Positions 5,673 through 59,409 are shown, counted from the stretch's first letter. The stretch is DNA of 64,000 nt from Pseudomonadota bacterium (GCA_039714115.1 JBDLJY010000001.1:1749-65748); one strand, 5' to 3'. The notes: generated by a model not told the origin, from the letters alone. Program-made: numbers and translations.

Positions 5673-5709
5673 TGCCATTAAGTGAGAAATCCTATTTTTA
5701 CGGTATTTT

Positions 5710-5763
5710 GGAGTCCAAGATTTATCTTGGGCGACCGCACGGAGAAGATAAATCTTGGACTCC
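5710..5763. repeat. REP-like palindrome pair (GGAGTCCAAGATTTATCTTGG ... AAGATAAATCTTGGACTCC)
   Basis: Read directly. Member of a family with at least 12 copies in this window. Confidence 0.9.
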
Positions 5764-5771
5764 AAAAAGTC

Positions 5772-6221: not shown

Positions 6222-6224
6222 AGT

Positions 6225-24567: not shown

Positions 24568-24608
24568 GTTATCGCTCAAACCTCTTCAGTTTATAAAACC
24601 TCGGGCAG

Positions 24609-24825
24609 ATTGAAGTTGTTTCGGGAATTTCGCTCCGCGGATTGAACGTCGCAAGCGAGGGCAACCACAAGGGATTGCCCCTACGAGTTGCCCGAAACCC
24701 AGTCGATAGTTTCGGGCAACGAAGTAACTTTCGAGGTAAAAGAAGTTCTCTTTACACGAGACGAAAACTTTTACCTCGAAAGCTTGCGACGTTCAATCCG
24801 CGGAGCGAAATTCCCGAAACAACGA
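24609..24825. mobile_element. MITE with ~41-bp terminal inverted repeats inside the intron ORF
   Basis: GTTGTTTCGGGAATTTCGCTCCGCGGATTGAACGTCGCAAG and its complement at the other end. It is flanked by a 14-bp direct repeat AAAACCTCGGGCAG (24595-24608 and 24826-24839). Confidence 0.8.
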
Positions 24826-24837
24826 AAAACCTCGGGC

Positions 24838-25341
24838 AGGGTAATGGAGAAATACTTCGGCTACAAAGATGGCAGAAACTGGGTATTTACAGATTTTAAT
24901 ACCGGCAAAAGCATCAAAGCCTATGCCAAGCACAAAGTCAAAACGGGTAGTTATGCCCGCGTTGGTTATCAAGATGTACTCCCAGCACAAAGAAAAAACC
25001 GGCCGTTAAGAGTGGGTTATGACCGGTCGTATTATGATGGAGATACAGCCTATTGGGCAGATAGACTGTCCAAAGGTTACGGTGACATTACGCCAGCTAA
25101 GGCAAAGATGTTGAAAAAGCAAAATGGTATTTGTCCGTATTGCAATAGCAGACTCACTAATGAGGACTTGCTGGAAGCTCACCATAAGAAGTATAGGGCA
25201 AGAGGCGGTGAGGACAAATATCACAATTTTGTATTGCTACATCGGCACTGTCACGACGCTTTACACAGAGAACAGACCAGGAAGCACCGTGAACATAGTC
25301 AGTTCATAGGTGGAGGGGTGGACCAGAGGGTTTGGTACTGA
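24838..25341 (+). pseudogene. Group II intron-encoded protein, C-terminal fragment (maturase end plus HNH endonuclease domain)
   Basis: CPYCNSRL..EAHHKKYRARGGEDKYHNFVLLHRHCHDALH is an HNH motif. The first about 50 codons of ORF 24688-25341 are MITE sequence. Confidence 0.8.
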
Positions 25342-34589: not shown

Positions 34590-35071
34590 GTGAAGATGCA
34601 AAAAGTAGTCGGGCGTGGTTATTAGATTTTGGTGGCGGTTTACAAGCCGCCATCGGATACCACGAAATGTGGCAAGCGCTTGTCTCGCCAACTTTGTTTA
34701 AGGTACCTTGTACGCCACACTACTGTAGCGAAGTCTTGATTTTTCAAAAGGAGATATTGCCGGTGCTTGATATGTCTTCTCTGTTAGAAAGAGATAAAAT
34801 CAGCCCTTTGATGAGTCAAGTGGTAGGGATTGCGGTTTACCAAGAAGTGCCCACTTTGCCTATCCGTTATGCTTGCTTGCGTTTGGCAAGCATGCCAAAG
34901 GGTATTTTTGTGAGTGATGATCAAGCTTGTGATTTGCTAGCCGATCAATTTTATTGGAAACCTTTGGCATTGTCCAGTTTTTCCCGCGATGATGTTGTTA
35001 TTCCTATTATCGATCTGGCTTATCTGTTTTCAGAAGATTTTAATGCTTTTAAACAAGGTTCTCTGGTATGA
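34586..35071 (+). CDS. CheW-like domain protein (ChpC-like)
   Basis: 161 aa. VPCTPHYCSEVLIFQKEILPVLDMSSLL and C-terminal VVIPIIDLAYLF fit the CheW pattern. Overlaps its neighbours by 4 bp on both sides. Confidence 0.65.
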   Translation: MSEDAKSSRAWLLDFGGGLQAAIGYHEMWQALVSPTLFKVPCTPHYCSEVLIFQKEILPVLDMSSLLERDKISPLMSQVVGIAVYQEVPTLPIRYACLRLASMPKGIFVSDDQACDLLADQFYWKPLALSSFSRDDVVIPIIDLAYLFSEDFNAFKQGSLV

Positions 35072-36333
35072 ATAATCTTGAGGTATTTCAGCCTGAATTC
35101 CGGCTACAACAGGTATCTCTCCAAAACTTTAGGGGGTTTGAACACCTAGAATTTTATTTTAAATCGGATTTAGCCGTTTTTATAGGGGAAAATGGGGCTG
35201 GAAAAACGAGCCTTTTGGAGGGGATTGCTAAGTTATTAATTGCTTTTGAAAATCAATTCAGGGGTGAGGATAGCCGCGATTTTAAAGATTTAAAAACAGT
35301 TTTTGATTTTTTTGATATCAGAAAAGGTAGCGTTGAATCTATTAATAGGATGTTCTTATCTTTCGCGGATCATGATTTAAATTGTGAGATTATTTTTCGA
35401 AAAAAATCTGCCCCTGTTTTAGGACAATGCAATTTTGAGGGTTTAAATGAATTTGTCCGTCTCTTTTATAGTTATAAACCGTTTAATCTCCCTTTGTTGG
35501 TTTATTATCCTGTTAGTAATGCTCCCGTTAATTATATTGATTTTGAAGAAGCCAGTAATGATTTTGAGATTGATAGTTTTACGGCTTTAGATGGTGCTTT
35601 GGATAATTCTTTTGATTTAATCCGCTTTTTCAGTTGGTATAAGTGGCAGCAAAACATTGAAAGGCAATTAGGCGAAAATAAAGTTTTGAATGTGGTGCGC
35701 CGTGTCATTTATAAGATGTTGAGCGATGAGCATAATAGATTCGATAAGTTATCTATCAATTGGGTTAAGAATCCTAATGGTGAAATGCTCATTCATAAAA
35801 ATGATTTATGTTTAAATATTAATCAACTTTCTTCGGGTGAAAAAATGCTTTTGGCTTTAGTGGCTGATCTTGCGCGTCGTTTAGCCCTTGCTAATCCATA
35901 CCGAGAAAATCCGTTGTTAGGTAACGGGGTTGTTTTGATTGATGAAATGGATTTGCATTTGCATCCGCGCCGGCAACGTGAGGTGATTCCTCAATTGCAA
36001 GAGACTTTTCCAAATTGTCAGTTTATTGTGACTACCCATTCTCCGCTGATTTTGAGCAATTTGCGGCGCGATAATGTGATTATTTTGGAGGATTTCAAAA
36101 CAGTCAAAAAGACGCCGCATACTTTTGGTAGAGATAATAATTCTATTTTATATGAATTAATGGGGGTTAAACAGCGTCCTGATGATGTCCAACAACAAAT
36201 TGACCAAGTTTATGAATTGATTGATGATGGAAATAAGGACGAAGCACAAGCCTTATTAAGGGAGCTATCCGAGCATTTGGGTGAAAATGATATTGCGATA
36301 GTCAAAGCTTATACACATTTGGCTTTTTTTTAA
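35068..36333 (+). CDS. AAA_15/AAA_21-type ATPase, Septu PtuA-like
   Basis: 421 aa. Walker A GENGAGKTSLLEGI, signature LSSGEKMLLALVADLARR, Walker B VLIDEMDLHLHP, VTTHSPLI. ATGA overlap with the upstream CheW-like gene. Confidence 0.75.
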   Translation: MNNLEVFQPEFRLQQVSLQNFRGFEHLEFYFKSDLAVFIGENGAGKTSLLEGIAKLLIAFENQFRGEDSRDFKDLKTVFDFFDIRKGSVESINRMFLSFADHDLNCEIIFRKKSAPVLGQCNFEGLNEFVRLFYSYKPFNLPLLVYYPVSNAPVNYIDFEEASNDFEIDSFTALDGALDNSFDLIRFFSWYKWQQNIERQLGENKVLNVVRRVIYKMLSDEHNRFDKLSINWVKNPNGEMLIHKNDLCLNINQLSSGEKMLLALVADLARRLALANPYRENPLLGNGVVLIDEMDLHLHPRRQREVIPQLQETFPNCQFIVTTHSPLILSNLRRDNVIILEDFKTVKKTPHTFGRDNNSILYELMGVKQRPDDVQQQIDQVYELIDDGNKDEAQALLRELSEHLGENDIAIVKAYTHLAFF

Positions 36334-38380: not shown

Positions 38381-38626
38381 ATGAATCTTGTCGCTATACC
38401 TGCACACTTTGATGGTAAGCAAATTCGTTTAGATAATCGAGTTAATATAGAACCGGGTGCAAAATTAATTATTACTGTGTTGCCAATTGTCAAAAACATT
38501 GAATTGAAAAATGATGATTGGACGCAAGTAGCAATGGCAGGCTTAGAAAGTGCTTATGGTGACAATGAGCCAGAATATTCGTTGGATTTAATTATTGAGC
38601 CGAATTCTGATTATGATAGAAGGTAA
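38381..38626 (+). CDS. Putative antitoxin of the MazEF-like pair
   Basis: 81 aa, overlaps the downstream MazF-like gene, acidic C-terminus. No firm family motif. Confidence 0.55.
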   Translation: MNLVAIPAHFDGKQIRLDNRVNIEPGAKLIITVLPIVKNIELKNDDWTQVAMAGLESAYGDNEPEYSLDLIIEPNSDYDRR

Positions 38627-38960
38627 CGTAGTCCTTACGCCAATCACTCAAGCATATGGCAAAGTTAAAAATCGACCAGCAATTGTCTTACGGAGCATGC
38701 CCCTCCACAATGATTTACTGGTTTGCGGCGTGAGTACGCAATTACACCATTATGTTGATGGTTTTGATGAAATCATCTCTCCTAGCGATGCTGATTTTTC
38801 CTCAAGCGGACTATTGGCAAAATCATTAATACGACTTGGCTTTCTGGCAGTATTGCCACATCACCATATCGTAGGCACAATTGGCTCTATTGCACCAGAA
38901 CGACATCAACGCTTGCTCAAAGCACTGAGTAAATACCTTACTAGCAATATTATGACTTGA
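38613..38960 (+). CDS. PemK/MazF-family toxin
   Basis: MIEGNVVLTPITQAYGKVKNRPAIVLRS...LLVCGVSTQL fits the PemK pattern (GD/NvV..fp...K.RPalVl...ivv.iTs). ATG 38613 is preferred over TTG 38595. Confidence 0.7.
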   Translation: MIEGNVVLTPITQAYGKVKNRPAIVLRSMPLHNDLLVCGVSTQLHHYVDGFDEIISPSDADFSSSGLLAKSLIRLGFLAVLPHHHIVGTIGSIAPERHQRLLKALSKYLTSNIMT

Positions 38961-39223: not shown

Positions 39224-39481
39224 AATGCCATTAAGTTAAGCAGCTTTATACCATAAGGGATTCAGTTGTGTGGAGCTTAAGGAGCGGAGCGGATTGAACG
39301 TCGCAAAAGCCTGTCCCTCGCGCTAGCGAGGGATCTTCGAGACTACTTCGTTGCCCGAAACCATCGACTGAAAGTTCCCTACGGGAGGAAATCCGCTCCG
39401 CTCCTTAAGCTCGAAACAACCCGTCCTGCACAGATTTTTTGATTTAAAAATAAATCAGTTATCCTTAACTTAATGGCATTG
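39224..39481. mobile_element. MITE with AATGCCATTAAGTTAAG terminal inverted repeats and an internal GGAGCGGAGCGG palindromic core
   Basis: TIRs at both ends, flanked by the direct repeat CCCTACAACAC (39213-39223 and 39483-39493). Confidence 0.85.
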
Positions 39482-39522
39482 ACCCTACAACACCCATCAA
39501 TTTAACATTGACAGAGTACTAG

Positions 39523-40520
39523 TTAAGTATAAGGATAAGTTTCTGACTCGTAGTAAGACTTTCCTGCGAGAGGGTTTTGATAAGGGCTGGTTTTGACCAT
39601 GCCATACCAATGTATGCTTTGATTATCAGCAATAAAGTCCGATGACTTTCTTTCGGTTTTTGTGAAATATTTCCCTTTTACCCAGCCTGAGCCCTTATTT
39701 GGGTGTCTGCGTTTGGACCATTTCCACAATTTTTCCCATAGCCAATAATCTAGCTTAGAGAATGTCTCACGGGATGTGACATGTTGGTATTCATGAGTCC
39801 ATGCTCTGATAATCGGGTTTAGTCTTCTAATAAGGGCTTCTTGTGGCGCCGCTTTCATTTTGTCGAAAACTTCCCGTATAGCGTCCCGGTGTTTCTTTAT
39901 GGCACTTGCTGATGGTCTTATATTTAGGAATTCTTTTTGCTTATATTTAGGAATTCTTTTTGGTATTTGCCCTGCGAGATGAGTTGCCTCTTGTAGTGAG
40001 CATTAATCCTTCTCTCCGCGTAGAATTGGATATTGTAAGTCAGAAAATCAAAGCCTTCTGTTGATTGTACCACTTGAGTATTGACTTCTGTTAACCCCCT
40101 GTCACCTAACCATTTTTTGAGCAGTTCTTGGCATTGTAAGATTATCTGGTTATCCTCATGAATAACGAGAATGTCACAGCTGTATCGAATCACTTTTAAG
40201 GTGCTGGCATCGGAAAATCCTGTTTCGATTTCTGCTTTCAAATATCTTTCCATGCCATCCAACACTATGTTGGCTATTAGTGGACTGATTATTCCATATT
40301 GCGGGGTGGTTGTTGGATCTAAGTGCCGGTCATCCATATAACCCGCCTTATAAATCCGCTTTTGGAGATTGAAGACTAGCCATTCAATTCTTCTCCAATC
40401 GTCGTCGGAGAGGGTATTCAAATCATTCTGAAATTCTGTCTGCACTTCGTTGGGTTCCAGTTGGCACAAAGCAAGCTTTTCGCTTGAATAAAAAAAACTT
40501 ATGGGATATTTGGAGTCCAA
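39523..40520 (-). pseudogene. Degenerate group II intron-encoded RT/maturase gene
   Basis: Two ORF fragments. The upstream one has LQKRIYKA joined directly to ..QYGIISPLIANIVLDGMERYL and YSCDILVI in place of YADD. The downstream one has the maturase motif RRLNPIIRAWTHEYQH. A 23-bp tandem duplication at 39917-39962 breaks the frame, and no domain V lies downstream. Confidence 0.8.
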
Positions 40521-40534
40521 GATTTATCTTGGAC
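40512..40534. repeat. REP unit GGAGTCCAAGATTTATCTTGGAC
   Basis: Read directly. Confidence 0.9.
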
Positions 40535-40656
40535 GATCCTAAGGAGAAATTATTTTCTCAGGCATTGATTGATCTGGTAACAATCTCTCAAATGCCACCC
40601 CAGATGATCTATAATTACCGCTCCAACATCACAAACAGTAAACCTTATTATTAATT

Positions 40657-43600
40657 ATGCAATACGCAGAACTCATTCACTTTGAAAATTTAGAGCCTGT
40701 TATCCAGCTCCGCCATGCTGATCTGTCGGCTAAGGTAAAACGCTTAATAACAACCTATGTCATTTCAGAAGAAATGGCTGCAAAATTGATTCATTCTGTC
40801 TTTGAACAACTCAGTTTTGATCATAAGACGGATAAAAAAGGTTTGTTTATCGTGGGCAATTATGGCACCGGTAAATCGCATCTCATGGCTGTCATTTCGA
40901 GTATCGCAGAAAATGCTGATTTATTGGAATATTTAAGCCATCAACAAGTTGCTAAAGCCGCCAAACCTAGCATTGCTGGCAAATTCCATGTTATACGTGT
41001 GGAAATGAGTGCCGTTGAACGTTCTCTACGCGATTGTCTCACGGCTGAAATTGAGGCTTATCTTGGTAGCATCAATGTCAGTTTCCATTTTCCGCCGGCT
41101 AACCAAATTACTAATAATAAGGGTGCATTTGAAAAGATGATGGCTGCTTTTGAGGCGCATTGTCCAGGGCAAGGTTTGTTGATCGTCGTTGATGAGTTAT
41201 TGGAGTTTTTAAGTAGTCGAAAAGATCGAGAACTCATTCTCGACTTGAGCTTTCTCCGCGAAATCGGCGAAGTTTGTCAAGATTTACGCTTTCGCTTTAT
41301 CGCTGGTTTACAGGAGACTGTTTTTGATAATCCGCGCTTTAAATTTGCCGCTAATGAGTTGCGTCGCGTTAAAGATCGTTTTGAACAGGTGCTGATTACG
41401 CGCAAAGATATTAAATTTGTCGTAGCTGAGCGGCTGCTGAAAAAAAATGCTCAACAAAAGGATAAAATCCGCGCCTATTTGCAGCCCTTTGCTAAATTTT
41501 ACGGCTCTATGAATGAGCGCTTGGATGAGTTTGTCGAACTTTTTCCGGTACATCCTGACTATATTGAGATTTTTGAGCGGATTATCGCTGTCGAACAGCG
41601 CGAAATCTTGAAAACCTTAGAACGCGCTATGCAAACTTTGCTGGTTCAACAGGTGCCCGCTACTTATCCCAATTTGCTCGCCTATGATAGTTATTGGAAT
41701 ACTCTCCGCGAAAATTTCTCCTTTCGTGCCACCGACGAGATTCGAGAAGTCATTAATTGTAGCCAAGTTTTAGAAGATCGCATCGCCAGCGCTTTCACGC
41801 GCCCGAATTATAGGGCAATGGCATTGCGGATTATTCACGCCCTCTCTGTGCATCGGCTCACCACACCTGATTTTTATACCCCCGTCGGTGTCACTGCGCG
41901 GGAACTTTTGGACAATTTATGTTTGTATCAGCCGGGTATTGAGGATTTAGGTAATCCCGCTGATGATTTGCTGTCTCAAGTTGAATTAGTTTTGCATGAG
42001 ATTTTAAAAACGGTTAATCGGCAATTTATTTCTGCAAATCCGCATAATGGGCAGTATTATCTTGATCTTAAAAAGACGGAGGATTTTGATGCTATTATCG
42101 AAAACCGCGCAGAAATTGTTGAGGATAACGAACTTGATCGTTATTATTATGTGGCACTCAGGCAGGTGATGGAACTCACAGACGAGCCTTATGTGGGGAA
42201 TTTTCTTATCTGGCAACATGAACTAGAATGGCTTAGCCATAAAGTCACTCGCCAAGGCTATTTGTTTTTTGGTACGCCCAATGAGCGGGCTACGGCGGTG
42301 CCGTCACGGGATTTTTATCTCTATTTGTTACAGCCTTATGATCCGCCTAAATATAAGAAAAATGCGTCTACGGCGGATGAAGTCTTTTTTCGCCTCATAG
42401 AAAAAGATGATGATTTTGTGCAAAGCTTACGCAATTTTACTGCCGCTTCTATTTTAGTCTTGAATTCTTCGGGACATCCGAAGTCGGTGTATGATTCTAA
42501 GGCTAAGCTTTATCTCAATCAGTTAGTGGCATGGCTACAAGCGCATCTCACGGATGCTTTTGAAGTCACTTATCAAAACCGCACAAAGCCTTTGTTAGAT
42601 TGGACAAAGGGTAAAAATGTCCGCGAAATGGCTGGGCTTGGCACGGATGCGCGTTTCAATTTTCGTGAATTGATAGAATTGGTGGCAAGCATTTGTTTGG
42701 AAAGTTATTTTTCTGATAATGCTCCTGAGTATCCAGTTTTTACGACGCTGATCACTGGCGAAAACTTGAGCCAAGCTGCTCAAGATGCTTTGCGTGGTAT
42801 CGCTAGCAAAAAACGTTCTAAACAAGCTAATAGTATTTTAGATGCTTTGCAATTATTGGAGGGAGAAGATTTCAAACCGTTAAAGGCGCAATATGCTACT
42901 GATATTCTCAATTTGCTGCATAAAAAACCGCAAGGGCAAGTGCTGAATCGGGGTGAATTGCTCCCCGAATATTATTTTGCTCCTGAAAAGTACCGCCTTG
43001 AGCCAGAATTTGTCATCGTCTTGGTGGCTGCTCTTGTTTTTGCTGGAGAAGTGGTACTCGCTTTACCGGGGCAAAAGTTGGATGCTTCAAATTTTGCGCG
43101 ACTCGCTGAAACGCCGATTAAGGATTTATTGGCTTTTAAACACATCGAGCGTCCTAAGGATTTTAATGTGCCGGCGTTAAAAGCTTTATTTGAGCTGTTA
43201 GGTTTACCCAGCGAATTGGCGATTAGTCTGACACAAAATGATGATGGGGCGGTGCATCAATTACGCAGTCAAGTTAATAAGCGCTTAGAAAGCTTAGTCA
43301 AAGCCTTGGATGAGTTAGTCAATGGCATTATATTTTGGGGGAAAGCGGTGCTGACTGAGGCGGATATCGAAATTTATCGAGGGCGGCTGTCAGAGTGTAA
43401 ACATTTTTTAGAAACGTTGCACTCTTATGCTACGCCTGCTCATTTCAAAAATTTTCGCTATACGGCTGAGGAAGTCTCGGCACAATTGGGGGGGGTTGAG
43501 ACTTTAGATGAAATCAGTCAGTTGCAGAGCATCCTCCAAGATTTGAATACGGCGACGGCTTTTTTGATGACGGCGGAAGTGGTGTTACCGCCAGATCATG

Positions 43601-44373
43601 TTTGGGTTGTTGAGATGAAAAAGGTGCGTGATAGTCTGTTGCCGCGCTTGATGGATAAGACGCAACGGGCGAGTAGTGGTTTTAGTTACCACACGCAACA
43701 AGAATTGGGTGCTTTACAAAAAGACTATCGGCAAATTTATCTTGATTTACACCAAGAGGCGAAATTAGGGGCGACTGAGAGTGAGGAGAAAAAACAGTTG
43801 TTGCAGGATGCTCGCTTGGCTCAGTTGAAAAATTTGGCTAAAATTGATTTGATGCCTCGACAACAATTGGAGGATTGGGAGGCGCGTCTGAATCAATTGG
43901 CGAGTTGTTTTGATTTGAATGAGTATGATTTATTTGTTCATGCGTTTTGTCCGCATTGCGAATTTAAGCCGTCTTCAGAATTGCAAGAGCCGGCTGCTGA
44001 TAAGCTGGCGGAGTTCAGCGAGAGCTTGGAACAATTCTATGGTGCTTGGACACAAATATTGTTGACGGAGTTAAAAGGGGTTGCTGATTCGGAACAATGG
44101 GGTTTACTCCAGGCGAAAAACCGCCGTTTGTTGGATAAATTTTTGAGTGAGAAAGTGCTGCCGGAGGAGATTAGTTTGGAATTTCTGGAGGCGGTGCGAG
44201 AGGCTTTGACGGGTTTGGAAAAGGTATGCTTTAATTTCAATGATTTGCAAAGTGCCATCGCGAGGGGTGGCTTTCCGGTGACGCTGCTAGAATTGCAGGT
44301 GCGGATTGAGCGCTATTTGCGGAAAATCACGAAGGATAAAGATGGGCATAATGTTCGGATTGTTTTAGAGTAA
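40657..44373 (+). CDS. Large (1238 aa) P-loop NTPase of unknown function, possibly DUF6079-like / BREX-type large ATPase class
   Basis: Walker A GNYGTGKSHLMAV and Walker B LLIVVDELLEFL in the N-terminal ~250 aa, followed by a long helical remainder and CPHCEF near the C-terminus. The family assignment is from memory only. Confidence 0.85.
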   Translation: MQYAELIHFENLEPVIQLRHADLSAKVKRLITTYVISEEMAAKLIHSVFEQLSFDHKTDKKGLFIVGNYGTGKSHLMAVISSIAENADLLEYLSHQQVAKAAKPSIAGKFHVIRVEMSAVERSLRDCLTAEIEAYLGSINVSFHFPPANQITNNKGAFEKMMAAFEAHCPGQGLLIVVDELLEFLSSRKDRELILDLSFLREIGEVCQDLRFRFIAGLQETVFDNPRFKFAANELRRVKDRFEQVLITRKDIKFVVAERLLKKNAQQKDKIRAYLQPFAKFYGSMNERLDEFVELFPVHPDYIEIFERIIAVEQREILKTLERAMQTLLVQQVPATYPNLLAYDSYWNTLRENFSFRATDEIREVINCSQVLEDRIASAFTRPNYRAMALRIIHALSVHRLTTPDFYTPVGVTARELLDNLCLYQPGIEDLGNPADDLLSQVELVLHEILKTVNRQFISANPHNGQYYLDLKKTEDFDAIIENRAEIVEDNELDRYYYVALRQVMELTDEPYVGNFLIWQHELEWLSHKVTRQGYLFFGTPNERATAVPSRDFYLYLLQPYDPPKYKKNASTADEVFFRLIEKDDDFVQSLRNFTAASILVLNSSGHPKSVYDSKAKLYLNQLVAWLQAHLTDAFEVTYQNRTKPLLDWTKGKNVREMAGLGTDARFNFRELIELVASICLESYFSDNAPEYPVFTTLITGENLSQAAQDALRGIASKKRSKQANSILDALQLLEGEDFKPLKAQYATDILNLLHKKPQGQVLNRGELLPEYYFAPEKYRLEPEFVIVLVAALVFAGEVVLALPGQKLDASNFARLAETPIKDLLAFKHIERPKDFNVPALKALFELLGLPSELAISLTQNDDGAVHQLRSQVNKRLESLVKALDELVNGIIFWGKAVLTEADIEIYRGRLSECKHFLETLHSYATPAHFKNFRYTAEEVSAQLGGVETLDEISQLQSILQDLNTATAFLMTAEVVLPPDHVWVVEMKKVRDSLLPRLMDKTQRASSGFSYHTQQELGALQKDYRQIYLDLHQEAKLGATESEEKKQLLQDARLAQLKNLAKIDLMPRQQLEDWEARLNQLASCFDLNEYDLFVHAFCPHCEFKPSSELQEPAADKLAEFSESLEQFYGAWTQILLTELKGVADSEQWGLLQAKNRRLLDKFLSEKVLPEEISLEFLEAVREALTGLEKVCFNFNDLQSAIARGGFPVTLLELQVRIERYLRKITKDKDGHNVRIVLE

Positions 44374-44380
44374 CGGCTTT

Positions 44381-44412
44381 GGAGTGCCCGCCCAAGATAA
44401 ATCTTGGACTCC
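44381..44412. repeat. REP-like unit directly after the NTPase gene
   Basis: GGAGTGCCCGCCCAAGATAAATCTTGGACTCC. Confidence 0.85.
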
Positions 44413-44432
44413 TACTTGTTTAGGAGTGTTCC

Positions 44433-44466
44433 AAAAAATCCGATTTTTTCAAAAAATCGGATTTTT
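44433..44466. repeat. Palindrome AAAAAATCCGATTTTTT-C-AAAAAATCGGATTTTT (bidirectional terminator-like)
   Basis: Read directly. The same motif occurs twice inside the MITE at 54495-54707. Confidence 0.85.
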
Positions 44467-44474
44467 CACGACTG

Positions 44475-44585
44475 CTATGGGGATTTCCGCCCTCCTGCAC
44501 TAGAAAGTGAATAAACGACTAATCCGACGAAAACGACGATATTTACAGCTATGACAAGTGCGGGTACAAACAATAATTCTGACAT
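44475..44585 (-). CDS. Small hydrophobic peptide, 36 aa (paralog 1)
   Basis: MSELLFVPALVIAVNIVVFVGLVVYSLSSAGGRKSP. GAGGAA SD 6 nt upstream. Shares the core P-A-x-x-I-A-V-N-I-x-x-x-V-G-x-V-V-Y-S-L-S/T-S with the two paralogs. Below the ORF-track cutoff. Confidence 0.55.
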   Translation of the reverse strand: MSELLFVPALVIAVNIVVFVGLVVYSLSSAGGRKSP

Positions 44586-44620
44586 GATTCGTTCCTCAAA
44601 ATGATGAAAATTAATGCAAA

Positions 44621-44660
44621 CCAAAAAGCTCGCCGCTCAAAACTTCGAGAGAGCGACGGC
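44621..44660 (-). terminator. Hairpin plus T5 downstream of peptide gene 2
   Basis: Minus strand GCCGTCGCTC-loop-GAGCGGCGAGC-TTTTTGG (imperfect stem). Confidence 0.5.
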
Positions 44661-44666
44661 TAATAA

Positions 44667-44828
44667 TCAAACGGCCTTACCTTCAGTATGGTAAAAACTT
44701 TCTCTTATCCCACTAGTAAGTGAGTAAACAACGATACCAACGAGAGCGAGAATGTTTACAGCTATGATAACTGCGGGAGCAAATATGACACCCAAGACAA
44801 CTAGAGGAACTAATAGTGCTTTTAACAT
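44667..44828 (-). CDS. Small hydrophobic peptide, 53 aa (paralog 2)
   Basis: MLKALLVPLVVLGVIFAPAVIIAVNILALVGIVVYSLTSGIRESFYHTEGKAV. AGGAGA SD upstream. Confidence 0.6.
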   Translation of the reverse strand: MLKALLVPLVVLGVIFAPAVIIAVNILALVGIVVYSLTSGIRESFYHTEGKAV

Positions 44829-44953
44829 GATTCAATTCTCCTAATGAATGAAAATAATAAAACTCCAATCGCAATATAATTATATTATTATTTTATAATA
44901 TACTAATATACAAAATGACTAACTATCGGACATTGGAACAGAGATATCTTAAA

Positions 44954-44987
44954 GCCCGCAGATCAAAACATCGAGATATCTGCGGGG
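44954..44987 (-). terminator. Hairpin downstream of peptide gene 3
   Basis: Minus strand CCCCGCAGAT-loop-ATCTGCGGGC followed by TTTAA (weak T-run). Confidence 0.4.
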
Positions 44988-45010
44988 TTGTGGCAAACAC
45001 ATCATATTGT

Positions 45011-45181
45011 TTAGACTGCCTTACCCTCCGTATGGTAAAAATGACCAAAACTTTCTCTTATCCCACTAGAAAGTGAGTAAACAACGATACCAACGAGAGC
45101 GAGAATGTTTACAGCTATGATAACTGCGGGAGCAAATATGACACCTAAAACAACTAGAGGAACTAATAGTACTTTTAACAT
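45011..45181 (-). CDS. Small hydrophobic peptide, 56 aa (paralog 3)
   Basis: MLKVLLVPLVVLGVIFAPAVIIAVNILALVGIVVYSLSSGIRESFGHFYHTEGKAV. GAGGA SD upstream. Nearly identical to paralog 2. Confidence 0.6.
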   Translation of the reverse strand: MLKVLLVPLVVLGVIFAPAVIIAVNILALVGIVVYSLSSGIRESFGHFYHTEGKAV

Positions 45182-45275
45182 GACTCAATCCTCATAAAAT
45201 GATGAAAGTTAATGCAAACTTTATGCCAAAAAGCCCTTGGGGCACACCCAGCCTTGTTGGCGTAAATAACATTAC

Positions 45276-45776
45276 AATATTATAAACTAACAATATTATT
45301 AGTTGCTGATACTTAATCCACAGGCTGTCAGACAGTCGGAGCTGGGAAATGATTGTGTCCATCGCCAGCCCATAAGCAAAACTAAAAAAAAAAAGACTAA
45401 TATTCAAATAGCCATGCTCAGATTATGGACATAGATAATAATATTGTCAAGCTTTTTGTGGAATTTTTGGGCTAAAAACGTATTAACTACTTGAAAAAAA
45501 AACATTTTTTTTTTACAGTTGTTTTTAGTTACAACTGATAACTGATAACTGATAACACGCTACCACAAAATGATACAGTGGCAGATTATATGCCTAAAAT
45601 CAAATTTAACAAGGCAAACAAAGTAAAAAAACGTGATTTCTTACTTTGTTGAAAGCAGTATCAAGTAATAAACTCACACAGTTATATAGGAATCAGACGA
45701 ATGGTCGTTTATATCCGACAAACGGTTCTAGACCTAAAAAAAAGGGACAAGTCTAATAAATAATCGCTTACAATAT
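45276..45776. repeat. Mosaic repeat, full copy A (~0.5 kb)
   Basis: Aligns along its length with 46084-46568. Contains an A11 tract (45383-45393) and 3 CTGATAA heptamers (45535-45555). Confidence 0.9.
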
Positions 45777-46083
45777 ATTATATAGCCATATACTAACTAA
45801 ATGACTAACTATCTGACATTGGAACGGAGCTATTTTAAAGCTCGCAGATCAAAACATCTCCAGACCATAAGCAAAACTAAAAAAAAAAGACTAATAATAA
45901 AATAGCCATGCTCATAGTATTGACATAGACAATAATATTGTCAAGTTTTTTTTGGTTAAAAACATATTAACTACTTGAAAAAACACAGTTTTTTAAGTAA
46001 CAAAAAAACATTCTACAACTAATAACTCATAACTGATAACACGCAACCACAAAATGATACCGTCAATTGATAGACATGTTTAG
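45777..46083. repeat. Mosaic repeat, partial/recombinant copy B
   Basis: It starts with a segment matching 44922-44990 (AAATGACTAACTATC.GACATTGGAAC.GAG) and continues into the CATAAGCAAAACTA-A10-GACTAAT part of the repeat. Its heptamers are degenerate (46016-46040). Confidence 0.8.
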
Positions 46084-46568
46084 AATATTATAAACTAATA
46101 ATGTTATTAGTTGCTGATACTTAATCCACAGATTGTCAGCCAGTCGGAGCTGGGAAATGATTGTGTCCATCGCCAGCCCATAAGCAAAACTAAAAAAAAA
46201 GACTAATATTCAAATAGCCATGCTCAGATTATGGACATAGATAATAATATTGTCAAGCTTTTTGTGGAAATTTTTGGCTAAAAACCTATTAACTACTTGA
46301 AAAAAAAACATTTTATTTTTAATTGTTTTTTTTTTGTTACAACTGATAACTGATAACACGCAACCACAAAATGATACAGTGGCAGATTATATGCCTAAAA
46401 CCAAATTTAACAAGGCAAACAAAGTAAAAAAACGTGATTTGCTGAAAGCAATATCAACTAATAAACCCTCACAGTTAGATAGAAATCAGACGAATGGTCG
46501 TTTATATCCGACAAACGGTTCTAGACCTAAAAAAAGGGACAAGTCTAATAAATAATCGCTTACAATAT
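46084..46568. repeat. Mosaic repeat, full copy C
   Basis: As copy A, but with an A9 tract (46192-46200) and 2 heptamers (46342-46356). Confidence 0.9.
46391..46555 (+). CDS. Possible 54-aa lysine/arginine-rich small protein encoded in repeat copy C
   Basis: MPKTKFNKANKVKKRDLLKAISTNKPSQLDRNQTNGRLYPTNGSRPKKRDKSNK. The copy-A homolog is frameshifted by an 8-nt insertion. No clear SD. Confidence 0.3.
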   Translation: MPKTKFNKANKVKKRDLLKAISTNKPSQLDRNQTNGRLYPTNGSRPKKRDKSNK

Positions 46569-46712
46569 GGGACGCTGAAATCTCGACGAGAGCCCAAACA
46601 AACATACTACTAATAAAAATATTTTTTCCGATACTTGCATAATATTTCTCCGTTAATTAGAATGGCTTCCCGTGTTTGTCGCCCTTTAACCCTTAAATAG
46701 GAGGCAACCAAA

Positions 46713-49744: not shown

Positions 49745-52041
49745 AAAACATTGATACCTTTCTCCATGTCAGGGGTGAGTCGCAATTTGTGGATGATGTG
49801 GTTGTGCCTGAAGGTTTGCTTTATGCCGCTGTTTTCTCATCTCCCATAGCCTGTGGCAAAATCACGCGATTGAGTCTGGCAGCTGCCAAAGAAATTGATG
49901 GCATATATGACATTTTGACAGCCGATGATATTCCCGCCGATAATCAAATTGGCAATATTATAAGGGATGAACCTTTATTGGCAGAGTCAGAAGTCAATTT
50001 TATTGGGCAACCGATTGCGCTTGTGGTAGGTCACAGTGCTGAAGTAGCTCGTATGGCAATGCAGGCGATAGAGATTGAATTTGAAGAACTACCCAGCATT
50101 TTTGATGCGCGTGAAGCTTATGCACAGGGACAATTGATTATCCCACCTCGTATTGTTTCTTTAGGAGAGATTGAGGAAACTTGGCAAAAATGTGATGTTA
50201 TTGTTGAAGGGCAAGTGGAATCTGGTGGACAAGAACATCTTTATTTAGAAATGCAAGGTGCCTTTGCCTATTCAACTGAAATGGGTGGAGTGAAAGTGAT
50301 AACAGCCACGCAGGCTCCAAGAGATGTACAAAATCGGATTGCTAAAGTGTTAGGTTTGGCACTGCATCATGTTGAAGTCGATGTTTTACGATTAGGTGGG
50401 GCATTTGGAGGTAAAGAAGTTCAAGCCACTACTTGGGCTGCTCTGGTTGCCTTAGCTGCTTTTAAACTTAAAAAACCAGTCAGACTGATCTTGCGCCGTG
50501 ATGAAGATATATGTATGACTGGGAAACGGCATCCTTATTCATCCGATTTCAAAATGGGCTTGGCTCATGATGGGAAAATTCTAGCTTATGAAGTGACTTA
50601 TTATCAAAATGCGGGGGCGTTTACTGATATCTCACCTGCTGTTTTGGATCGGACACTTTTGCACAGTACCAATAGTTATTTCGTACCCAATGTTAAAGCC
50701 ACCGGCTTCTGTTGCCGCACCAATCTACCGCCCAACACCGCCTTTCGTGGTTTTGGTACGCCACAGGCTATGTTTGTGATTGAATCTGCCATTTTTAAAG
50801 CGGCAGAAAAAATGGGCGTTGAACCATCAGTCATCCAAAAAAAGAATCTGTTGCAAGAGAATGATGAATTTCCTTATAGTCTTAAGGTAAAAAATAGTCA
50901 GGCACGTCGGTGTTGGGAACAAGCAGAACAAGTTTATCAACTAGAACAAATTCGCCAAGACATTCAAGATTTCAATTCAAGCCATTCATTCCAGAAAAAA
51001 GGGCTTGCTCTGATGCCCCTTTGCTATGGCATAGCATTTAGCAGTGCTATTTTTTTATGTCAAGCCTCTGCCTTATTACACATTTACAGTGATGATGGTA
51101 GTATCAGTGTTAGCACGGGTGCAGTCGAAATGGGGCAAGGTCTCAACATGAAAATTCGGCTGGTGGTGAGCGACATTTTTTCAATCAATGTTAATCGAAT
51201 CAAAGTCGAAAGCACGAATACGACTCGCGTGGCTAATGCGTCTCCCACATCTGCAAGTTATAGTGCCGATTTATATGGCAATGCCACCAAATTAGCTTGT
51301 TTAAAACTCTTAACTCGTATCAAAGAATTTGCGGCTAAACAACTCAATACGCCGCATACCAAGGATATCGAAATTAAAAACGAAACCCTTTATTTGCGTG
51401 GCAAACCCACCGAGTTGACATGGGACAAGCTCATTTCCGAGGCTTACTTGAATCGGATCAATCTGTCGGCAGAAGGCTATTACACCACGCCTAACATCCA
51501 TTTTGATCAAAGTCAATATAAGGGTAAACCTTTTGCTTATCACGTTTTTGGTACTGCTATAATAGAGGTAACGGTGGATTGTCTGCGTGGAACTTACCAA
51601 ATTAATGCCGTCAAGCTAGTACATGATTTTGGTAAAAGTCTCAATCCGTTAATTGATCGTGGGCAAGCAGAAGGTGCCATTGTGCAAGGACTTGGTTGGA
51701 TGACACTAGAAGAGTTAAGCTATGCTAACAATGGGCGTTTAACCTCTGGTACTTTGTCAACCTATAAAGTGCCAGATATTTATTTTGCTCCGCAAGAAAT
51801 ACAGGTACATTTTTTGGAAAATTCCGAAAATCCGCAGGGCATATTTAATTCCAAAGCCATTGGTGAGCCACCATTTATATATGGTATCGGGGTTTATTTT
51901 GCCATTTGGCAAGCTATGAAAGCCTTTCGTCCAGATTTGCAAATGCGGTTTTCAGCACCCATGACACCTGAAAAAGTGTTGCTTTCTTTGTATGACAATC
52001 ATATTCAACTCATGAAGGAGAAAAAAAATGGCAGTTTATGA
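49741..52041 (+). CDS. xdhB: Xanthine dehydrogenase molybdopterin-binding subunit
   Basis: 766 aa. Aldehyde oxidase/xanthine dehydrogenase a/b hammerhead and MoCo domains (GGAFGGKE, AFRGFGTPQ, GEPP). Confidence 0.88.
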   Translation: MKNIDTFLHVRGESQFVDDVVVPEGLLYAAVFSSPIACGKITRLSLAAAKEIDGIYDILTADDIPADNQIGNIIRDEPLLAESEVNFIGQPIALVVGHSAEVARMAMQAIEIEFEELPSIFDAREAYAQGQLIIPPRIVSLGEIEETWQKCDVIVEGQVESGGQEHLYLEMQGAFAYSTEMGGVKVITATQAPRDVQNRIAKVLGLALHHVEVDVLRLGGAFGGKEVQATTWAALVALAAFKLKKPVRLILRRDEDICMTGKRHPYSSDFKMGLAHDGKILAYEVTYYQNAGAFTDISPAVLDRTLLHSTNSYFVPNVKATGFCCRTNLPPNTAFRGFGTPQAMFVIESAIFKAAEKMGVEPSVIQKKNLLQENDEFPYSLKVKNSQARRCWEQAEQVYQLEQIRQDIQDFNSSHSFQKKGLALMPLCYGIAFSSAIFLCQASALLHIYSDDGSISVSTGAVEMGQGLNMKIRLVVSDIFSINVNRIKVESTNTTRVANASPTSASYSADLYGNATKLACLKLLTRIKEFAAKQLNTPHTKDIEIKNETLYLRGKPTELTWDKLISEAYLNRINLSAEGYYTTPNIHFDQSQYKGKPFAYHVFGTAIIEVTVDCLRGTYQINAVKLVHDFGKSLNPLIDRGQAEGAIVQGLGWMTLEELSYANNGRLTSGTLSTYKVPDIYFAPQEIQVHFLENSENPQGIFNSKAIGEPPFIYGIGVYFAIWQAMKAFRPDLQMRFSAPMTPEKVLLSLYDNHIQLMKEKKNGSL

Positions 52042-52756
52042 CAATATAGCCGAGCTGTATCAAAAAATTGATTATGTAGCAAATATGCCTATTAATGTGT
52101 ATACACATCTTAATTTGATTGGCGATGTAACAGACAAATCAATTCTTGATTTGGCTTGTGGAGATGGACTTTACACTAGAATGTTCAAGCAAAGCGCTAA
52201 ATACGTGGTTGGAGTGGACATTTCTGAAAAAATGATTGAGCTTGCCAGACAGCAAGAAGCTAGAGAGCCGCTTGGTATTGAATATCTTGTCCGTGATGTG
52301 CTTGAACTTGGCGAAATTGGTCATTTTGATTTGGTAGTTGCTGCTTATCTTCTAAATTATTCACAAACGAAAGAACAACTGCTCAAAATGTGTCAGAACA
52401 TTTATGTCAATCTGAAAACAGGCGGTCGTTTCCTCACCATCAACGGTAATCTTGATATGCCTCCTGAAATATATCCGAAATGGCAAAAATACGGCTTTAC
52501 CAAAAGTATTTCGGGTCCACTTGAGGAAGGTACACCCATTACTTTAACCTTCACTGCTGAAGGTAAACAATTCAGTTTTGATAACTACTACCTTAGCAAA
52601 GCCACGTATGAGTGGGCATTGCAAAAAGCGGGTTTTAAAGAAGTTTATTGGCATCAACCTCAAGTATCTCCAGAGGGTATTGAGAAATTTGGGCAAGAAT
52701 TTTGGCAAGATGCCCTTGATTACCCCTTTAATTGGTTTATTGAGTGCGTGAAATAA
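52028..52756 (+). CDS. Class I SAM-dependent methyltransferase
   Basis: 242 aa. Motif I ILDLACGDGLYT. Overlaps the xdhB end by 14 nt. Confidence 0.8.
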   Translation: MAVYDNIAELYQKIDYVANMPINVYTHLNLIGDVTDKSILDLACGDGLYTRMFKQSAKYVVGVDISEKMIELARQQEAREPLGIEYLVRDVLELGEIGHFDLVVAAYLLNYSQTKEQLLKMCQNIYVNLKTGGRFLTINGNLDMPPEIYPKWQKYGFTKSISGPLEEGTPITLTFTAEGKQFSFDNYYLSKATYEWALQKAGFKEVYWHQPQVSPEGIEKFGQEFWQDALDYPFNWFIECVK

Positions 52757-53986: not shown

Positions 53987-55069
53987 TTAACGCTCTCCCC
54001 ATTGAAATAAACCCAATCCGCCTAACACTACAGCTGCGCCCAGCCAGACTGTCGCGTGAATTATTTCTCCATTCAAATATTGTCCTAAAAACAGTGCCGT
54101 AATCGGGGTGATTAGGGTAATCAAAGCTACTCGTTTTGCATCAATCTGCTTGAGGATATAGTAGTAGAGTATAAATCCTAGCACTGAGCCAAATATCCCT
54201 AAATAGACAACCGATAACAGGGTGCGTGCGGTAAGGTTTTCCGGCAATGATTCTCCGAGCAATATCCATGTGATGCCATATAAGGGCAAAGCTATTAATA
54301 ATCCACCGCCTGTCATCGCTAAAGGGGAGATGGATACATTCAGGCGTTTTATCCAAACGGCACTGAATGAATGTAAAAACACTGCGATCAAGATGGCTAA
54401 TAAGCCTTTTACATTGTCTGCTTCCATTTTCAATTCGGTATTAAAAATCAGGCCCAAGCCTATTAGGCCTAATAACATGCCCGCCCATTGAGTCAATGCC
54501 ATTAAGTTAAGGATAAATGATTGATTTTAAAATAAAAAAAACTATTTTAAGAACAGATTCTGGTTTTTTTTTAACATAGATGCTCCGTTAAAAATCCGAT
54601 TTTTTGAAAAAATCGGATTTTTTTGACGTAGCAGCTCCGTTAAAAATCCGATTTTTACGTCTTCTCTCCAATAAAATCAATCAGTTGTCCTTAACTTAAT
54701 GGCATTGGCCCATTGAGTCGGGCTGATGGTGCGATCATTTAACCAGATAATGCTTAGTAAACTGGTCACTATCGGCGAAATGCCAAAGAGTACTGAAATT
54801 AGCCCCGATGGAATAAATTGTGCGCCCCAATAGGTTATTATCATGGCTCCGTAAATTGTTACACTGGCTGCCCAATAACTACGTCGAGCGGCACGATGCC
54901 AAGGAAATTCTAGGCGCCATAAGGCGATAATCAGGATACATAATAAGGCTCCCAATAGCATACGTCCGCTGACACCAAACAAAAAGCCGGTTTCGCCACT
55001 CCATTTGATCGCTAATGGCGTAGTGGACCAAATAATGATAACTCCTAAATACGCTGCCGGGACAGACAT
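53987..55069 (-). pseudogene. EamA/DMT-family transporter gene split by a MITE
   Basis: The N-terminal half (54677-55069) and C-terminal half (53987-54502) are both multi-TM EamA-like. The junction residues of both ORFs are encoded by MITE ends. Confidence 0.8.
54495..54707. mobile_element. MITE (AATGCCATTAAGTTAAGGA TIRs) inserted in the EamA gene
   Basis: 19-bp TIRs, flanked by the 12-bp direct repeat GCCCATTGAGTC (54483-54494 and 54708-54719). Confidence 0.88.
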
Positions 55070-57441: not shown

Positions 57442-59409
57442 ATGCCTAAAAAATTGAAATGGAAACAAGCTGTTTGGAAAGCATTGAACCGCTTTGCGTC
57501 TCGACACCAGATACAAGCGATTAACTTTAAAGTGTTCTATGAAGAAGAACAAGAGCGCATTTTAGCGGATACTCAATCTAATACAGCATCACCACGCTCA
57601 GTAATCCGTTCAACTTTACAAAGACTATGTAATGATGGTGTCCTTAAAATTGAGCCGAAGACGCGAGGGACTTATATCTTAGTCGATGAACCTGTGTTTA
57701 ATACGTCACTCTCACAACCCTGTGCAGTAGATTTTGAAGCCTATCGCGCTGAATGGCTTAAAGACGTTATTGACGGTAATCGATCTACTATAGAATTGGG
57801 AAGACGCTTTGCACACAAATTGATTAGTCAATGGTTTGAAATAGATGATTCATCAGATGACATTGTTTATTGTGACGGTGCTGGAGACGGAGGTATTGAT
57901 ATTGCCTATTTGAAACGTGCCGGTATTCAAGGAGATACGTGGTACATTGTGCAAAGTAAGTACAGTGTCGCTTCAAGTCGGCAGCTTTTTTCTGAAGCTC
58001 GGAAGATGATAGGTACGCTTGATGGTAAAAACAAAAAGATCTCTTCATCAACTCAGGATTTATTAGAACGTCTGAATAATTTTCGCGCTCAAGCGTCTCC
58101 AAATGATGGGCTTATTTTTGTCTTTGCTACAGATAGATCATTAAGTGAAAATCAAAAAGAAATATTATTAGACATACGCGATTATGGTAAAAAGCGGCTT
58201 GGGAGTATTTTTGATGTACAAGCGGTTTCAATAGAGACACTTTTTCAGCGTCTACAAGAAAAGCCTCTGCCACTGAGTGTTCCGATTAAAATCCAACTTT
58301 TCCATTATGGGGAAAATTTGAGCATTGGTTATGCTCAGTTGGACGATCTATATGAGTTCTTGAAGGCTTACCGCGATAAAACAGGTGATTTAGAACCGCT
58401 GTATGATAAGAATATACGCCGTTATCTGGGATTACAACCACATCGGAAAACTAATCAGGCGATAAAGAAAACTCTTGAGGAAAAGCCTCAAAATTTTGGG
58501 TTCTACAATAATGGCATAACGTTGGTGGTTAAGAATTTTCGGGCACTTTTGAATGGTTATTTTGAGTTGACTGAGCCTTATATAGTTAATGGTTGTCAAA
58601 CAGTTGGTACTATCTGGAATGTTTTATTTAAAAAACTTGAGTCGGGGGGAACAGGCTCTGATCAACAATTAGAGGATTGGAAAGAAAGATTTGCAAAAGG
58701 TATTGTCGTGCTTAAAATTGTTCAAATAGATTCTGACGTGGAGGAAGAGTTACTTAACGATATTACACGTTATACTAATCTCCAAAATCGTGTTGAGGAG
58801 AAGGATTTTATAGCTTTAACTTCAAGTTTTAAACAATGGCAAAGTAAAATGAAGCGATATGGTGTGTACCTTGAACTTCAACGCGGGGATTGGGAGGCTC
58901 AGAAGGCTTTTCAGAATAAGCATCCAACGAGCTTTCAATTTAAGGCTCATGCAAAGGTACTTGATTTGATTAAAGTTTACAGTGCCGGCTGGTTAGGTGT
59001 TCCCGGCGTTGCCTTGGCCCAAAATCCGCCATTTTTACCGGGCGGGGCAATTTTTAAAAAGATTCTCGATGCTTCAAGAACGGTGCCATTTGGTGTGGAT
59101 GATCTATATGCTGCTTATCTTTTGCAAATCGGAACAGAAGAAAAGCCTTATGGCCCTTTTGGGAGAAAGGCTGCTAGGGATAAGAAAGACAGTCGCGGTT
59201 CAACTCGTTTTTTGTTTTACCGGATTGTCATAGAACTACTCAAAGATGTTATGCTTGATGCTCAAATAGAGCAATCTGAGGTTAATATTACACAATCGCT
59301 TTTAAAACTTTTTCGCAGGGAAAATTACACTGCCCTTTTAATGCAGGCGATACAATTGTTAGATGAATACTTTAAAGAAGATCTGGATAATTCGGTTTAT
59401 AGTATATAA
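57442..59409 (+). CDS. AIPR-family (abortive-infection phage-resistance-like) protein with an N-terminal winged-helix-like segment
   Basis: 655 aa. CDGAGDGGIDIAYL and WYIVQSKYS resemble the AIPR N-terminal signature. The last codons and stop appear to be supplied by the IS left end. Confidence 0.65.
   Translation: MPKKLKWKQAVWKALNRFASRHQIQAINFKVFYEEEQERILADTQSNTASPRSVIRSTLQRLCNDGVLKIEPKTRGTYILVDEPVFNTSLSQPCAVDFEAYRAEWLKDVIDGNRSTIELGRRFAHKLISQWFEIDDSSDDIVYCDGAGDGGIDIAYLKRAGIQGDTWYIVQSKYSVASSRQLFSEARKMIGTLDGKNKKISSSTQDLLERLNNFRAQASPNDGLIFVFATDRSLSENQKEILLDIRDYGKKRLGSIFDVQAVSIETLFQRLQEKPLPLSVPIKIQLFHYGENLSIGYAQLDDLYEFLKAYRDKTGDLEPLYDKNIRRYLGLQPHRKTNQAIKKTLEEKPQNFGFYNNGITLVVKNFRALLNGYFELTEPYIVNGCQTVGTIWNVLFKKLESGGTGSDQQLEDWKERFAKGIVVLKIVQIDSDVEEELLNDITRYTNLQNRVEEKDFIALTSSFKQWQSKMKRYGVYLELQRGDWEAQKAFQNKHPTSFQFKAHAKVLDLIKVYSAGWLGVPGVALAQNPPFLPGGAIFKKILDASRTVPFGVDDLYAAYLLQIGTEEKPYGPFGRKAARDKKDSRGSTRFLFYRIVIELLKDVMLDAQIEQSEVNITQSLLKLFRRENYTALLMQAIQLLDEYFKEDLDNSVYSI

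Follow-up and report, generated by a model that had tools for sequence, protein, structure and literature searches.

We analysed a 64,000-nucleotide stretch of the genome of a Pseudomonadota bacterium (GCA_039714115.1, JBDLJY010000001.1:1749-65748; hereafter the window), in which a first-pass annotation had picked out a giant P-loop ATPase gene without recognisable partner genes. The open reading frame (ORF) at 40657-44373 on the plus strand is intact as claimed, with an ATG start, 1238 amino acids and a single terminal stop, and all quoted motifs could be located. GNYGTGKSHLMAV corresponds to residues 67-79 and contains the Walker A motif (G67-S74, GNYGTGKS at 67-74), LLIVVDELLEFL corresponds to residues 174-185 and contains VVDE at 177-180 with the Walker B pair D179-E180, and CPHC lies at residues 1098-1101 within a conserved C-terminal cysteine cluster (C1084, C1098 and C1101). 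Based on profile matches, motif conservation and a fold match to solved BrxC structures, we annotate the gene as brxC, a DUF6079 member of the type 3 class of bacteriophage exclusion (BREX) systems. We lean towards regarding the protein as a functional type 3 BrxC, the system's large ATPase.

The likeness to DUF6079 and to the BrxC/PglY class of ATPases, which the first-pass annotation had pointed out, was borne out by profile searches against Pfam and PADLOC and could be sharpened to type 3 BrxC. Pfam DUF6079 (PF19557) spans residues 1-1238 of 1238 with 1542.5 bits (cut-off 23), and the PADLOC BrxC model PDLC02482 matches the protein end to end (1-1231 of 1231) with 1635 bits. The NCBIfam model of type 1 BREX_BrxC (NF033441) scored 61.6 bits, below its cut-off of 400. 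The two end-to-end matches together with this sub-threshold score therefore identify a BrxC-class ATPase that is not a type 1 BrxC. Models for SspC (SspC / BREX type 4 BrxC) reached ~29 bits versus 1635 bits for the BREX BrxC model, and a search for DUF4007 (SspB/BrxP) gave no match in the window's genome and none in control genomes either.

The proposed structural comparison was carried out on residues 1-560, for which an AlphaFold2 model was built from 39 aligned relatives with a mean predicted local distance difference test score of 77.2. A Foldseek search of this model against the PDB placed solved BrxC structures first, the top seven matches being Acinetobacter BrxC (9zdx, 9zll and 9zn5; E 2.7e-10 to 5.9e-8) with template modelling (TM) scores of 0.44-0.51 and 14-15% identity. 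ORC/Cdc6 proteins rank next. Sequence searches of the PDB with the window protein and with a 14-sequence profile gave no match. In the predicted model, the N-terminal domain is an ORC/Cdc6-like AAA+ ATPase.

A scan for relatives using one genome per species confirmed 579, of which the 80 best loci, each with 10 kb of flanking sequence, were retained. Comparing these homolog neighbourhoods, as the first-pass annotation had suggested, proved informative: ORF clustering of the flanks shows a conserved operon around the relatives in the order BrxF-BrxC-PglXI-BrxHII-PglZ-BrxA. This corresponds to type 3 BREX in the Goldfarb classification, as given in the accessible part of a large BREX survey (bioRxiv 10.1101/2025.10.09.681413). 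The cluster representatives matched NCBIfam BREX_3_BrxF (190 bits), the PADLOC models for PglXI (1194 bits), BrxHII (1535 bits) and BrxA (321 bits), and NCBIfam BREX_PglZ_3 (798 bits). Our type 3 reference set consisted of the 56 loci with full-length BrxC whose record titles do not denote sulfur bacteria. Of 53 such loci long enough to judge, 47 have BrxF upstream of BrxC; PglXI is located downstream of BrxC in 44 of 45, and PglZ within 10 kb of BrxC in 28 of 41. BrxHII is present in eight of the 13 loci without PglZ in the flank, and in these the operon probably extends past the 10-kb flank. When five outside genomes without PglZ in the flank were searched, a BREX-3 PglZ was found in all five (727-915 bits), at L089, L067 and L083 on the same contig and 1.5-3 kb past the flank. 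As the relatives reside in BrxF-PglXI-BrxHII-PglZ-BrxA operons, the DUF6079 family therefore represents the BrxC of type 3 BREX. The closest named homologues come from Thiomargarita, Parabeggiatoa and Thiotrichaceae records.

Frequent accessories of the reference operons are a MAD1-like helix-turn-helix (HTH) protein and a Schlafen/AlbA_2 protein. One cluster (c3), combining Schlafen/AlbA_2, HATPase_c_4 and winged HTH (wHTH) domains, separates BrxC from PglXI in 31 of the 80 loci; it was rejected as a specific partner, many distant paralogues being scattered in the window's genome.

Around the window gene, the claim that the window has no methyltransferase, PglZ or BREX/DISARM gene holds: a scan of 30 ORFs from 21.6 to 59.4 kb detected no BREX, DISARM or DNA methyltransferase gene. 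The sole methyltransferase in this interval (52028-52756) is a small class I S-adenosylmethionine (SAM) enzyme inside a xanthine-dehydrogenase cluster. Partner remnants beside the gene were likewise not seen in a tblastn search of contig C1 from 38 to 50 kb with all partner proteins at E <=10. The statement that the gene lacks recognisable partners holds within the window but fails at the level of the genome (G000), a 7.2-Mb assembly in 680 contigs that is 87% complete. Tblastn searches of G000 with every partner protein from the 80 reference loci revealed two full-length PglXI genes (C55:23107-25926 and C538:190-3009; 58-59% identical to the operonic protein) as well as a single BrxA gene (C88:9211-9957; 45% identity to operonic BrxA). 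A second full-length DUF6079 gene, 58% identical to the window BrxC, resides at C233:6620-10339 on the minus strand. These BrxC, PglXI and BrxA copies are located on different contigs and in contexts unrelated to each other, PglXI on C55 neighbouring radical SAM and glycosyltransferase genes and BrxA on C88 neighbouring Cas6 and an AAA_15/21 ATPase. BrxF and PglZ gave no tblastn match in G000, PF08665 had no match, and BrxHII was also not found. On C233, a search for partner remnants at E <=10 gave generic AAA similarity only. The ends of contigs C538 (PglXI) and C233 (BrxC) showed no overlap by which the two could be joined. Downstream of the C233 BrxC lies a 90-residue ORF followed, two genes past BrxC, by a HEC-01A/HEC-01B candidate defence pair (AAA_21 ATPase and DUF4276; 4654-6332, minus strand).

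The pattern extends across the lineage. Among 55 genomes of the family, 24 carry a DUF6079 BrxC. Strong PglXI matches (at least 631 bits) occur in 23 genomes, 22 of them BrxC-positive, and BrxA occurs in 16, all BrxC-positive. The exceptions to co-occurrence of BrxC and PglXI are G017, G074 (59% complete) and G076 (80% complete); seven more family genomes have only weak PglXI-model matches of ~100 bits, which stem from other methylases. Neither BREX_PglZ_3 nor BrxF exceeded the cut-off in any of the 55 genomes, and the generic PglZ domain did so in one, the BrxC-negative G022. The PglZ search that recovered the gene in the five outside operon-bearing genomes served as the positive control. For BrxHII, the best match in the 55 genomes was partial, with 363 bits versus 1535 for a true BrxHII, and matches to this profile in control genomes also come from generic SNF2 helicases. 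Weak BrxF-like matches (E 1e-4 to 1e-6) to the N-terminus of a ~1080-residue protein in 11 family genomes were rejected as BrxF because the G000 protein is ClpB-like AAA+ (AAA_2, ClpB_D2-small).

Completeness is 90% or more in sixteen of the BrxC-positive genomes, among them G005, which is closed as a single contig, and an assembly of 10 contigs. In G005, BrxC lies at 3,401,722 and PglXI at 861,796, ~2.5 Mb apart, and BrxA is absent. We fetched 29 BrxC, 25 PglXI and 11 BrxA loci of the family together with flanks of at most 7 kb. No second BREX gene was found in these loci, except for an 81-residue N-terminal PglXI fragment just upstream of BrxC (L105), and neighbours of the three genes are not conserved past genus level. 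The G017 genome, which lacks PglXI and BrxA, encodes a divergent DUF6079 protein (L124; C78:83217-86885, 637 bits) with D-D in place of the Walker B pair and a very long branch; this protein may belong to another system.

All three genes are under purifying selection. Pairwise dN/dS, the ratio of nonsynonymous to synonymous substitution rates after Nei-Gojobori, was 0.08-0.23 for BrxC (11 pairs), 0.09-0.19 for PglXI (7 pairs) and 0.18-0.31 for BrxA (4 pairs), with 0.136 for the window BrxC against its G002 orthologue. All 28 BrxCs of the family retain the Walker A lysine together with the three C-terminal cysteines, and 27 of the 28 retain the Walker B D-E pair; among 49 operonic copies, 48-49 keep the Walker A and B motifs. 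The DPP core of both catalytic motifs of PglXI (DPPY and DPPF) is kept in all 23 family sequences, and the lengths of family BrxC, PglXI and BrxA equal those of their operonic relatives.

In a FastTree phylogeny of 85 BrxCs, 11 family sequences including the window gene form clade A (support 100) and 17 including the C233 copy form clade B (support 99), the two clades holding parallel sets of species; three early singles separate. The 49 operon-linked reference BrxCs form one clade, sister to clade A, a placement that may reflect sampling because the references were picked for closeness to the query. In the PglXI tree, 22 of 23 family sequences fall into one clade (support 100). We mapped BrxC onto an RpoB tree of the 48 genomes with an rpoB gene. 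Here, the BrxC label needs 2 changes compared with a mean of 16 after shuffling, and none of 500 shuffles was as low. The 21 genomes on one side of the basal split have no BrxC; of the 27 on the other side, 21 have it, and the sole BrxC-negative nested clade is genus g22. All six g22 genomes (support 100, within a support-95 group) lack BrxC, PglXI and BrxA, which suggests one concerted loss of three unlinked genes and hence coupling between them. BrxC, PglXI and BrxA are thus old and vertically inherited in one subclade. The RpoB open frames measure 1490-2135 residues in G011, G036, G017, G012, G004, G030, G014, G023, G021, G026, G025 and G078, compared with ~1370 in other family genomes. The hidden Markov model match falls into two parts in several of these, so parts of the family may carry large RpoB insertions.

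The immediate surroundings of brxC contain the features that the first-pass annotation had reported, namely a group II intron ORF, repeats and a toxin-antitoxin cassette upstream and a peptide/repeat locus downstream. Directly upstream, at 39523-40520 on the minus strand, a group II intron ORF has decayed into fragments that match the Pfam domains GIIM maturase (39523-39858) and RVT_1 (39924-40520); it is a neighbouring mobile-element remnant outside the BREX-derived set. The same applies to a putative toxin-antitoxin pair at 38381-38960 on the plus strand, an 81-residue ORF with a MazF/PemK-like toxin (38595-38960; PF02452, 26.7 bits), which is a neighbour only. A REP-like short perfect palindrome with the core GTCCAAGATTTATCTTGGAC lies at 40500-40539, ~120 nt upstream of the brxC start codon; it has 956 blastn-short matches in the 7.2-Mb genome and a read depth ~23x baseline. 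Just past the brxC stop, 44384-44473 comprises a second copy of the palindrome (44384-44413, ~950 matches) and a different hairpin repeat (44434-44473, ~750 matches), which may serve as a terminator or mRNA-end structure. A scan for promoters and terminators showed no excess over shuffled expectation, and an Rfam scan of 37.5-47.5 kb gave only two sub-threshold miRNA-model matches, on a hairpin repeat.

Read depth over the brxC region is flat outside the repeats (~35 in run X1 and ~7 in run X2) and rises to 20-180x baseline at the bracketing repeats, with up to ~180x at 44384-44473. One public contig of run X1 spans 39470-44460 with zero differences, so we regard the local assembly as sound. 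Read joints that skip ~3.85 kb across the ORF were rejected as deletions; their sides are only 18-27 letters long and derive from the flanking high-copy repeats.

Further out, the upstream neighbours are a chemotaxis cluster, a PtuA-like ATPase and an asparagine synthase. The PtuA-like AAA ATPase gene (35068-36333, plus strand; PADLOC PtuA, 412 bits) overlaps the last CheW-like ORF with its start codon and has no adjoining PtuB/HNH partner. The downstream side holds short minus-strand ORFs for hydrophobic peptides, repeats rich in A/T, a FIST protein and the xanthine-dehydrogenase cluster. The peptide ORFs (44475-45181, minus strand) are three tandem frames of 49-56 codons encoding very hydrophobic, similar peptides without a Pfam match, and beside them, at 45200-46600, there are by eye apparently two copies of a ~0.8-kb A/T-rich repeat unit. 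An AIPR-domain protein encoded at 57442-59409 (plus strand; PADLOC AbiU, 93 bits) is a candidate abortive-infection protein. A second decayed group II intron ORF lies in pieces at 23884-25341 on the plus strand (RVT_N/RVT_1 at 23884-24567, HNH at 24688-25341), and an EamA-family transporter at 53987-55069 on the minus strand is present as two ORFs of 171 and 130 amino acids and may be a broken gene.

Taken together, we favour, by a modest balance of probability, that the window BrxC belongs to an old BREX-3 derivative, inherited vertically, dispersed and devoid of the nuclease, which probably acts as a BrxC-assisted methylation module and whose parts, we infer, are still coupled. In this clade of large sulfur bacteria, a six-gene BREX-3 operon would have been reduced to BrxC, the N6-adenine methyltransferase PglXI and, in most genera, BrxA. 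The phosphatase/nuclease PglZ, the adaptor BrxF (an iSTAND protein that corresponds to BrxB) and the SNF2-type helicase BrxHII would have been lost, and the remaining genes would have been scattered singly over the chromosome and retained by vertical descent. BrxC, PglXI and BrxA would still cooperate in trans: BrxC dimers might show ATP-dependent binding to DNA and license PglXI, or position it, to methylate specific sites, and BrxA might tune DNA binding by BrxC. Such a module would carry out BREX methylation but not BREX restriction. A methylation module is proposed because BrxC, PglXI and BrxA are the remainder once the restriction side (PglZ, BrxF and BrxHII) is removed. In its strict form, this would be a 'methylation-only' BREX in which the three proteins act in trans from scattered loci to write site-specific N6-methyladenine (m6A) without PglZ, BrxB/BrxF or a helicase, a proposal that we hold only tentatively.

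Comparison with known systems delimits this proposal. As in type 3 BREX, BrxC and PglXI are 50-59% and BrxA 45% identical to the operonic proteins, with the same lengths and the same best models. Unlike type 3 BREX, the three genes do not form an operon and are unlinked, as the distance between BrxC and PglXI in the closed genome illustrates, and PglZ, BrxF and BrxHII were found in none of the 24 BrxC-bearing family genomes. Since an adjacent BrxF, an adjacent PglXI, BrxHII and PglZ are all missing, the gene set is not a canonical type 3 BREX. With type 1 BrxC (Acinetobacter / E. fergusonii; 9zdx, 9zll, 9zn5), as described in the available text of PMC13326643, the window protein shares the N-terminal AAA+/wHTH fold, the Walker motifs and a large helical C-terminal region, the latter seen here through the end-to-end profile match only. 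In the same source, type 1 BrxC forms a dimer anchored through the C-terminus, with AAA+ domains that bind both ATP and DNA; BrxA associates with BrxC and weakens its binding to DNA, and BrxB:PglZ docks onto the AAA+ domain. When a BrxB mutation disrupts this contact, methylation largely persists and restriction is lost; together with the effect of BrxA on BrxC, this speaks for the proposed module. By analogy, the window BrxC probably shares ATP-dependent DNA binding and dimerisation with type 1 BrxC. It differs in its low identity within the aligned fold (~14-15%), in scoring 61.6 bits against the type 1 cut-off of 400, and in lacking any sequence match in the PDB; moreover, the BrxB:PglZ that binds the type 1 N-terminal domain is without a counterpart in G000.

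A second comparison concerns the BREX-related 'BR' systems as outlined in the accessible part of the survey (10.1101/2025.10.09.681413). They too are reduced BREX-derived sets with a BrxC-like ATPase and a PglX-like methyltransferase. According to that text, BR systems have DUF499, compact operons and always a nuclease or a minimal PglZ, whereas the genes described here comprise a DUF6079 ATPase, are dispersed and have no nuclease partner that we could see. The set also resembles orphan (solitary) DNA methyltransferases, in which the modification function is kept by vertical descent after loss of restriction. Unlike these, an accessory ATPase and often BrxA are kept alongside the methyltransferase here, which suggests that the methylase still requires helpers.

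Several observations weigh against a coupled module. According to PMC13326643, every type I BREX tested needs BrxB and PglZ as well as BrxC for PglX methylation, and a PglZ-less methylation module contradicts this only experimental precedent. BrxC shares no locus with PglXI or BrxA, and no 9-mer is common to at least 8 upstream regions across brxC, pglXI and brxA. The co-occurrence comprises few independent events because one ancestral gain largely explains it, and the concerted loss in g22 is one event only. The divergent BrxC of G017 exists without PglXI, G076 (80% complete) has PglXI without BrxC, and BrxC copies often outnumber PglXI copies (2 vs 1 in G002, G030, G075 and G078). Some copies are decaying. 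The sister species G001 keeps its clade-B BrxC as fragments only (~25-110 and ~197-307 on one contig, ~1153-1244 on another; C330 and C294, L211 and L212), which is ongoing copy decay, and has intact PglXI and BrxA. Further broken BrxC copies include a frameshift in G031, three pieces in G009:C278 and a 58-residue fragment in G078:C304; an internal stop interrupts one PglXI of G027, and genus g4 has a shortened PglXI. Finally, upstream of the second BrxC only 14 nt remain before contig C233 ends, in a genome that is 87% complete. A complex prediction for BrxC residues 1-560 with the unlinked BrxA gave a score of 0.00, which we do not take as evidence either way.

Among the alternatives, the one that survives best, which we consider unlikely, is that BrxC acts alone or with non-BREX partners in single-gene defence or DNA handling, and that PglXI is an independent orphan methyltransferase that merely shares its origin. 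The monocistronic and unlinked state of all three genes would fit such independence, as would the G017 protein without PglXI and BrxA, the retention of PglXI and BrxA beside a decayed clade-B BrxC in G001, and the surplus of BrxC copies over PglXI. It accounts poorly for the joint distribution, as PglXI accompanies BrxC in 22 of 24 genomes and strong PglXI is missing in 30 of 31 BrxC-negative genomes, and for the joint loss of all three genes in one genus. Moreover, no activity of a lone BrxC is known, the studied BrxC acting inside BrxB:C:Z:X complexes in the available text of PMC13326643.

Improbable in our view is that a complete system was missed, with PglZ, BrxF and BrxHII lying in unassembled DNA or replaced by analogues too divergent for profiles. 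The fragmented state of G000, with C233 ending right at the second BrxC, leaves room for missing genes, and profile searches are blind to non-homologous replacements. However, the absence holds in the 16 BrxC-positive genomes of at least 90% completeness, the closed G005 and the 10-contig genome among them; the same search recovers PglZ in 5/5 outside genomes, and tblastn with all partners found neither BrxF nor PglZ.

Least probable is that the window BrxC has lost its function and is what remains of a degraded BREX-3 operon, drifting to loss: the missing core partners PglZ and BrxF, the mobile-element debris around the gene and the visibly broken copies in G001, G031, G009:C278 and G078:C304 point that way, but 28 full-length intact copies in at least 10 genera with conserved ATPase motifs and dN/dS of 0.08-0.23, and two paralogue clades that each follow the species tree, argue for long retention, since neutral decay would not spare a 3.7-kb ORF. 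The first-pass suggestion of a survivor of a degraded system is therefore half right: PglZ, BrxF and BrxHII are missing, but the remaining genes are old, vertical, duplicated and under purifying selection, not recent wreckage.

The preferred reading, a dispersed BREX-3 derivative with a probable methylation role, bears on how BREX is understood. The available text of PMC13326643 puts BREX in roughly 10% of prokaryotes with its mechanism unsolved, and current models therein place a BrxB:BrxC:PglZ core at the centre of methylation and restriction alike. Retention of BrxC, PglXI and BrxA is unexpected for a system thought to need every component. Our literature search found no BREX description for Thiomargarita or Beggiatoa, nor an orphan or dispersed BrxC or PglX, although the supplement of the large survey may list these genomes. 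That survey, in its accessible part, discarded hits having incomplete neighbourhoods (10.1101/2025.10.09.681413), and neighbourhood-based defence surveys miss dispersed systems.

As BrxC, PglXI and BrxA were kept long after the loss of PglZ, BrxF and BrxHII, the lineage represents a natural deletion experiment, which can indicate which BREX activities outlast the nuclease module and which minimal protein set to use for reconstitution. If the genes act independently, this would amount to ordinary gene-by-gene erosion of a defence island. If methylation-only BREX is real, the BrxB:PglZ 'anchor' would not be universally required for BREX methylation, and a defence system would have taken on, by domestication, an epigenetic or self-marking role that is passed on vertically, possibly twice, given the two BrxC clades with different sister groups.

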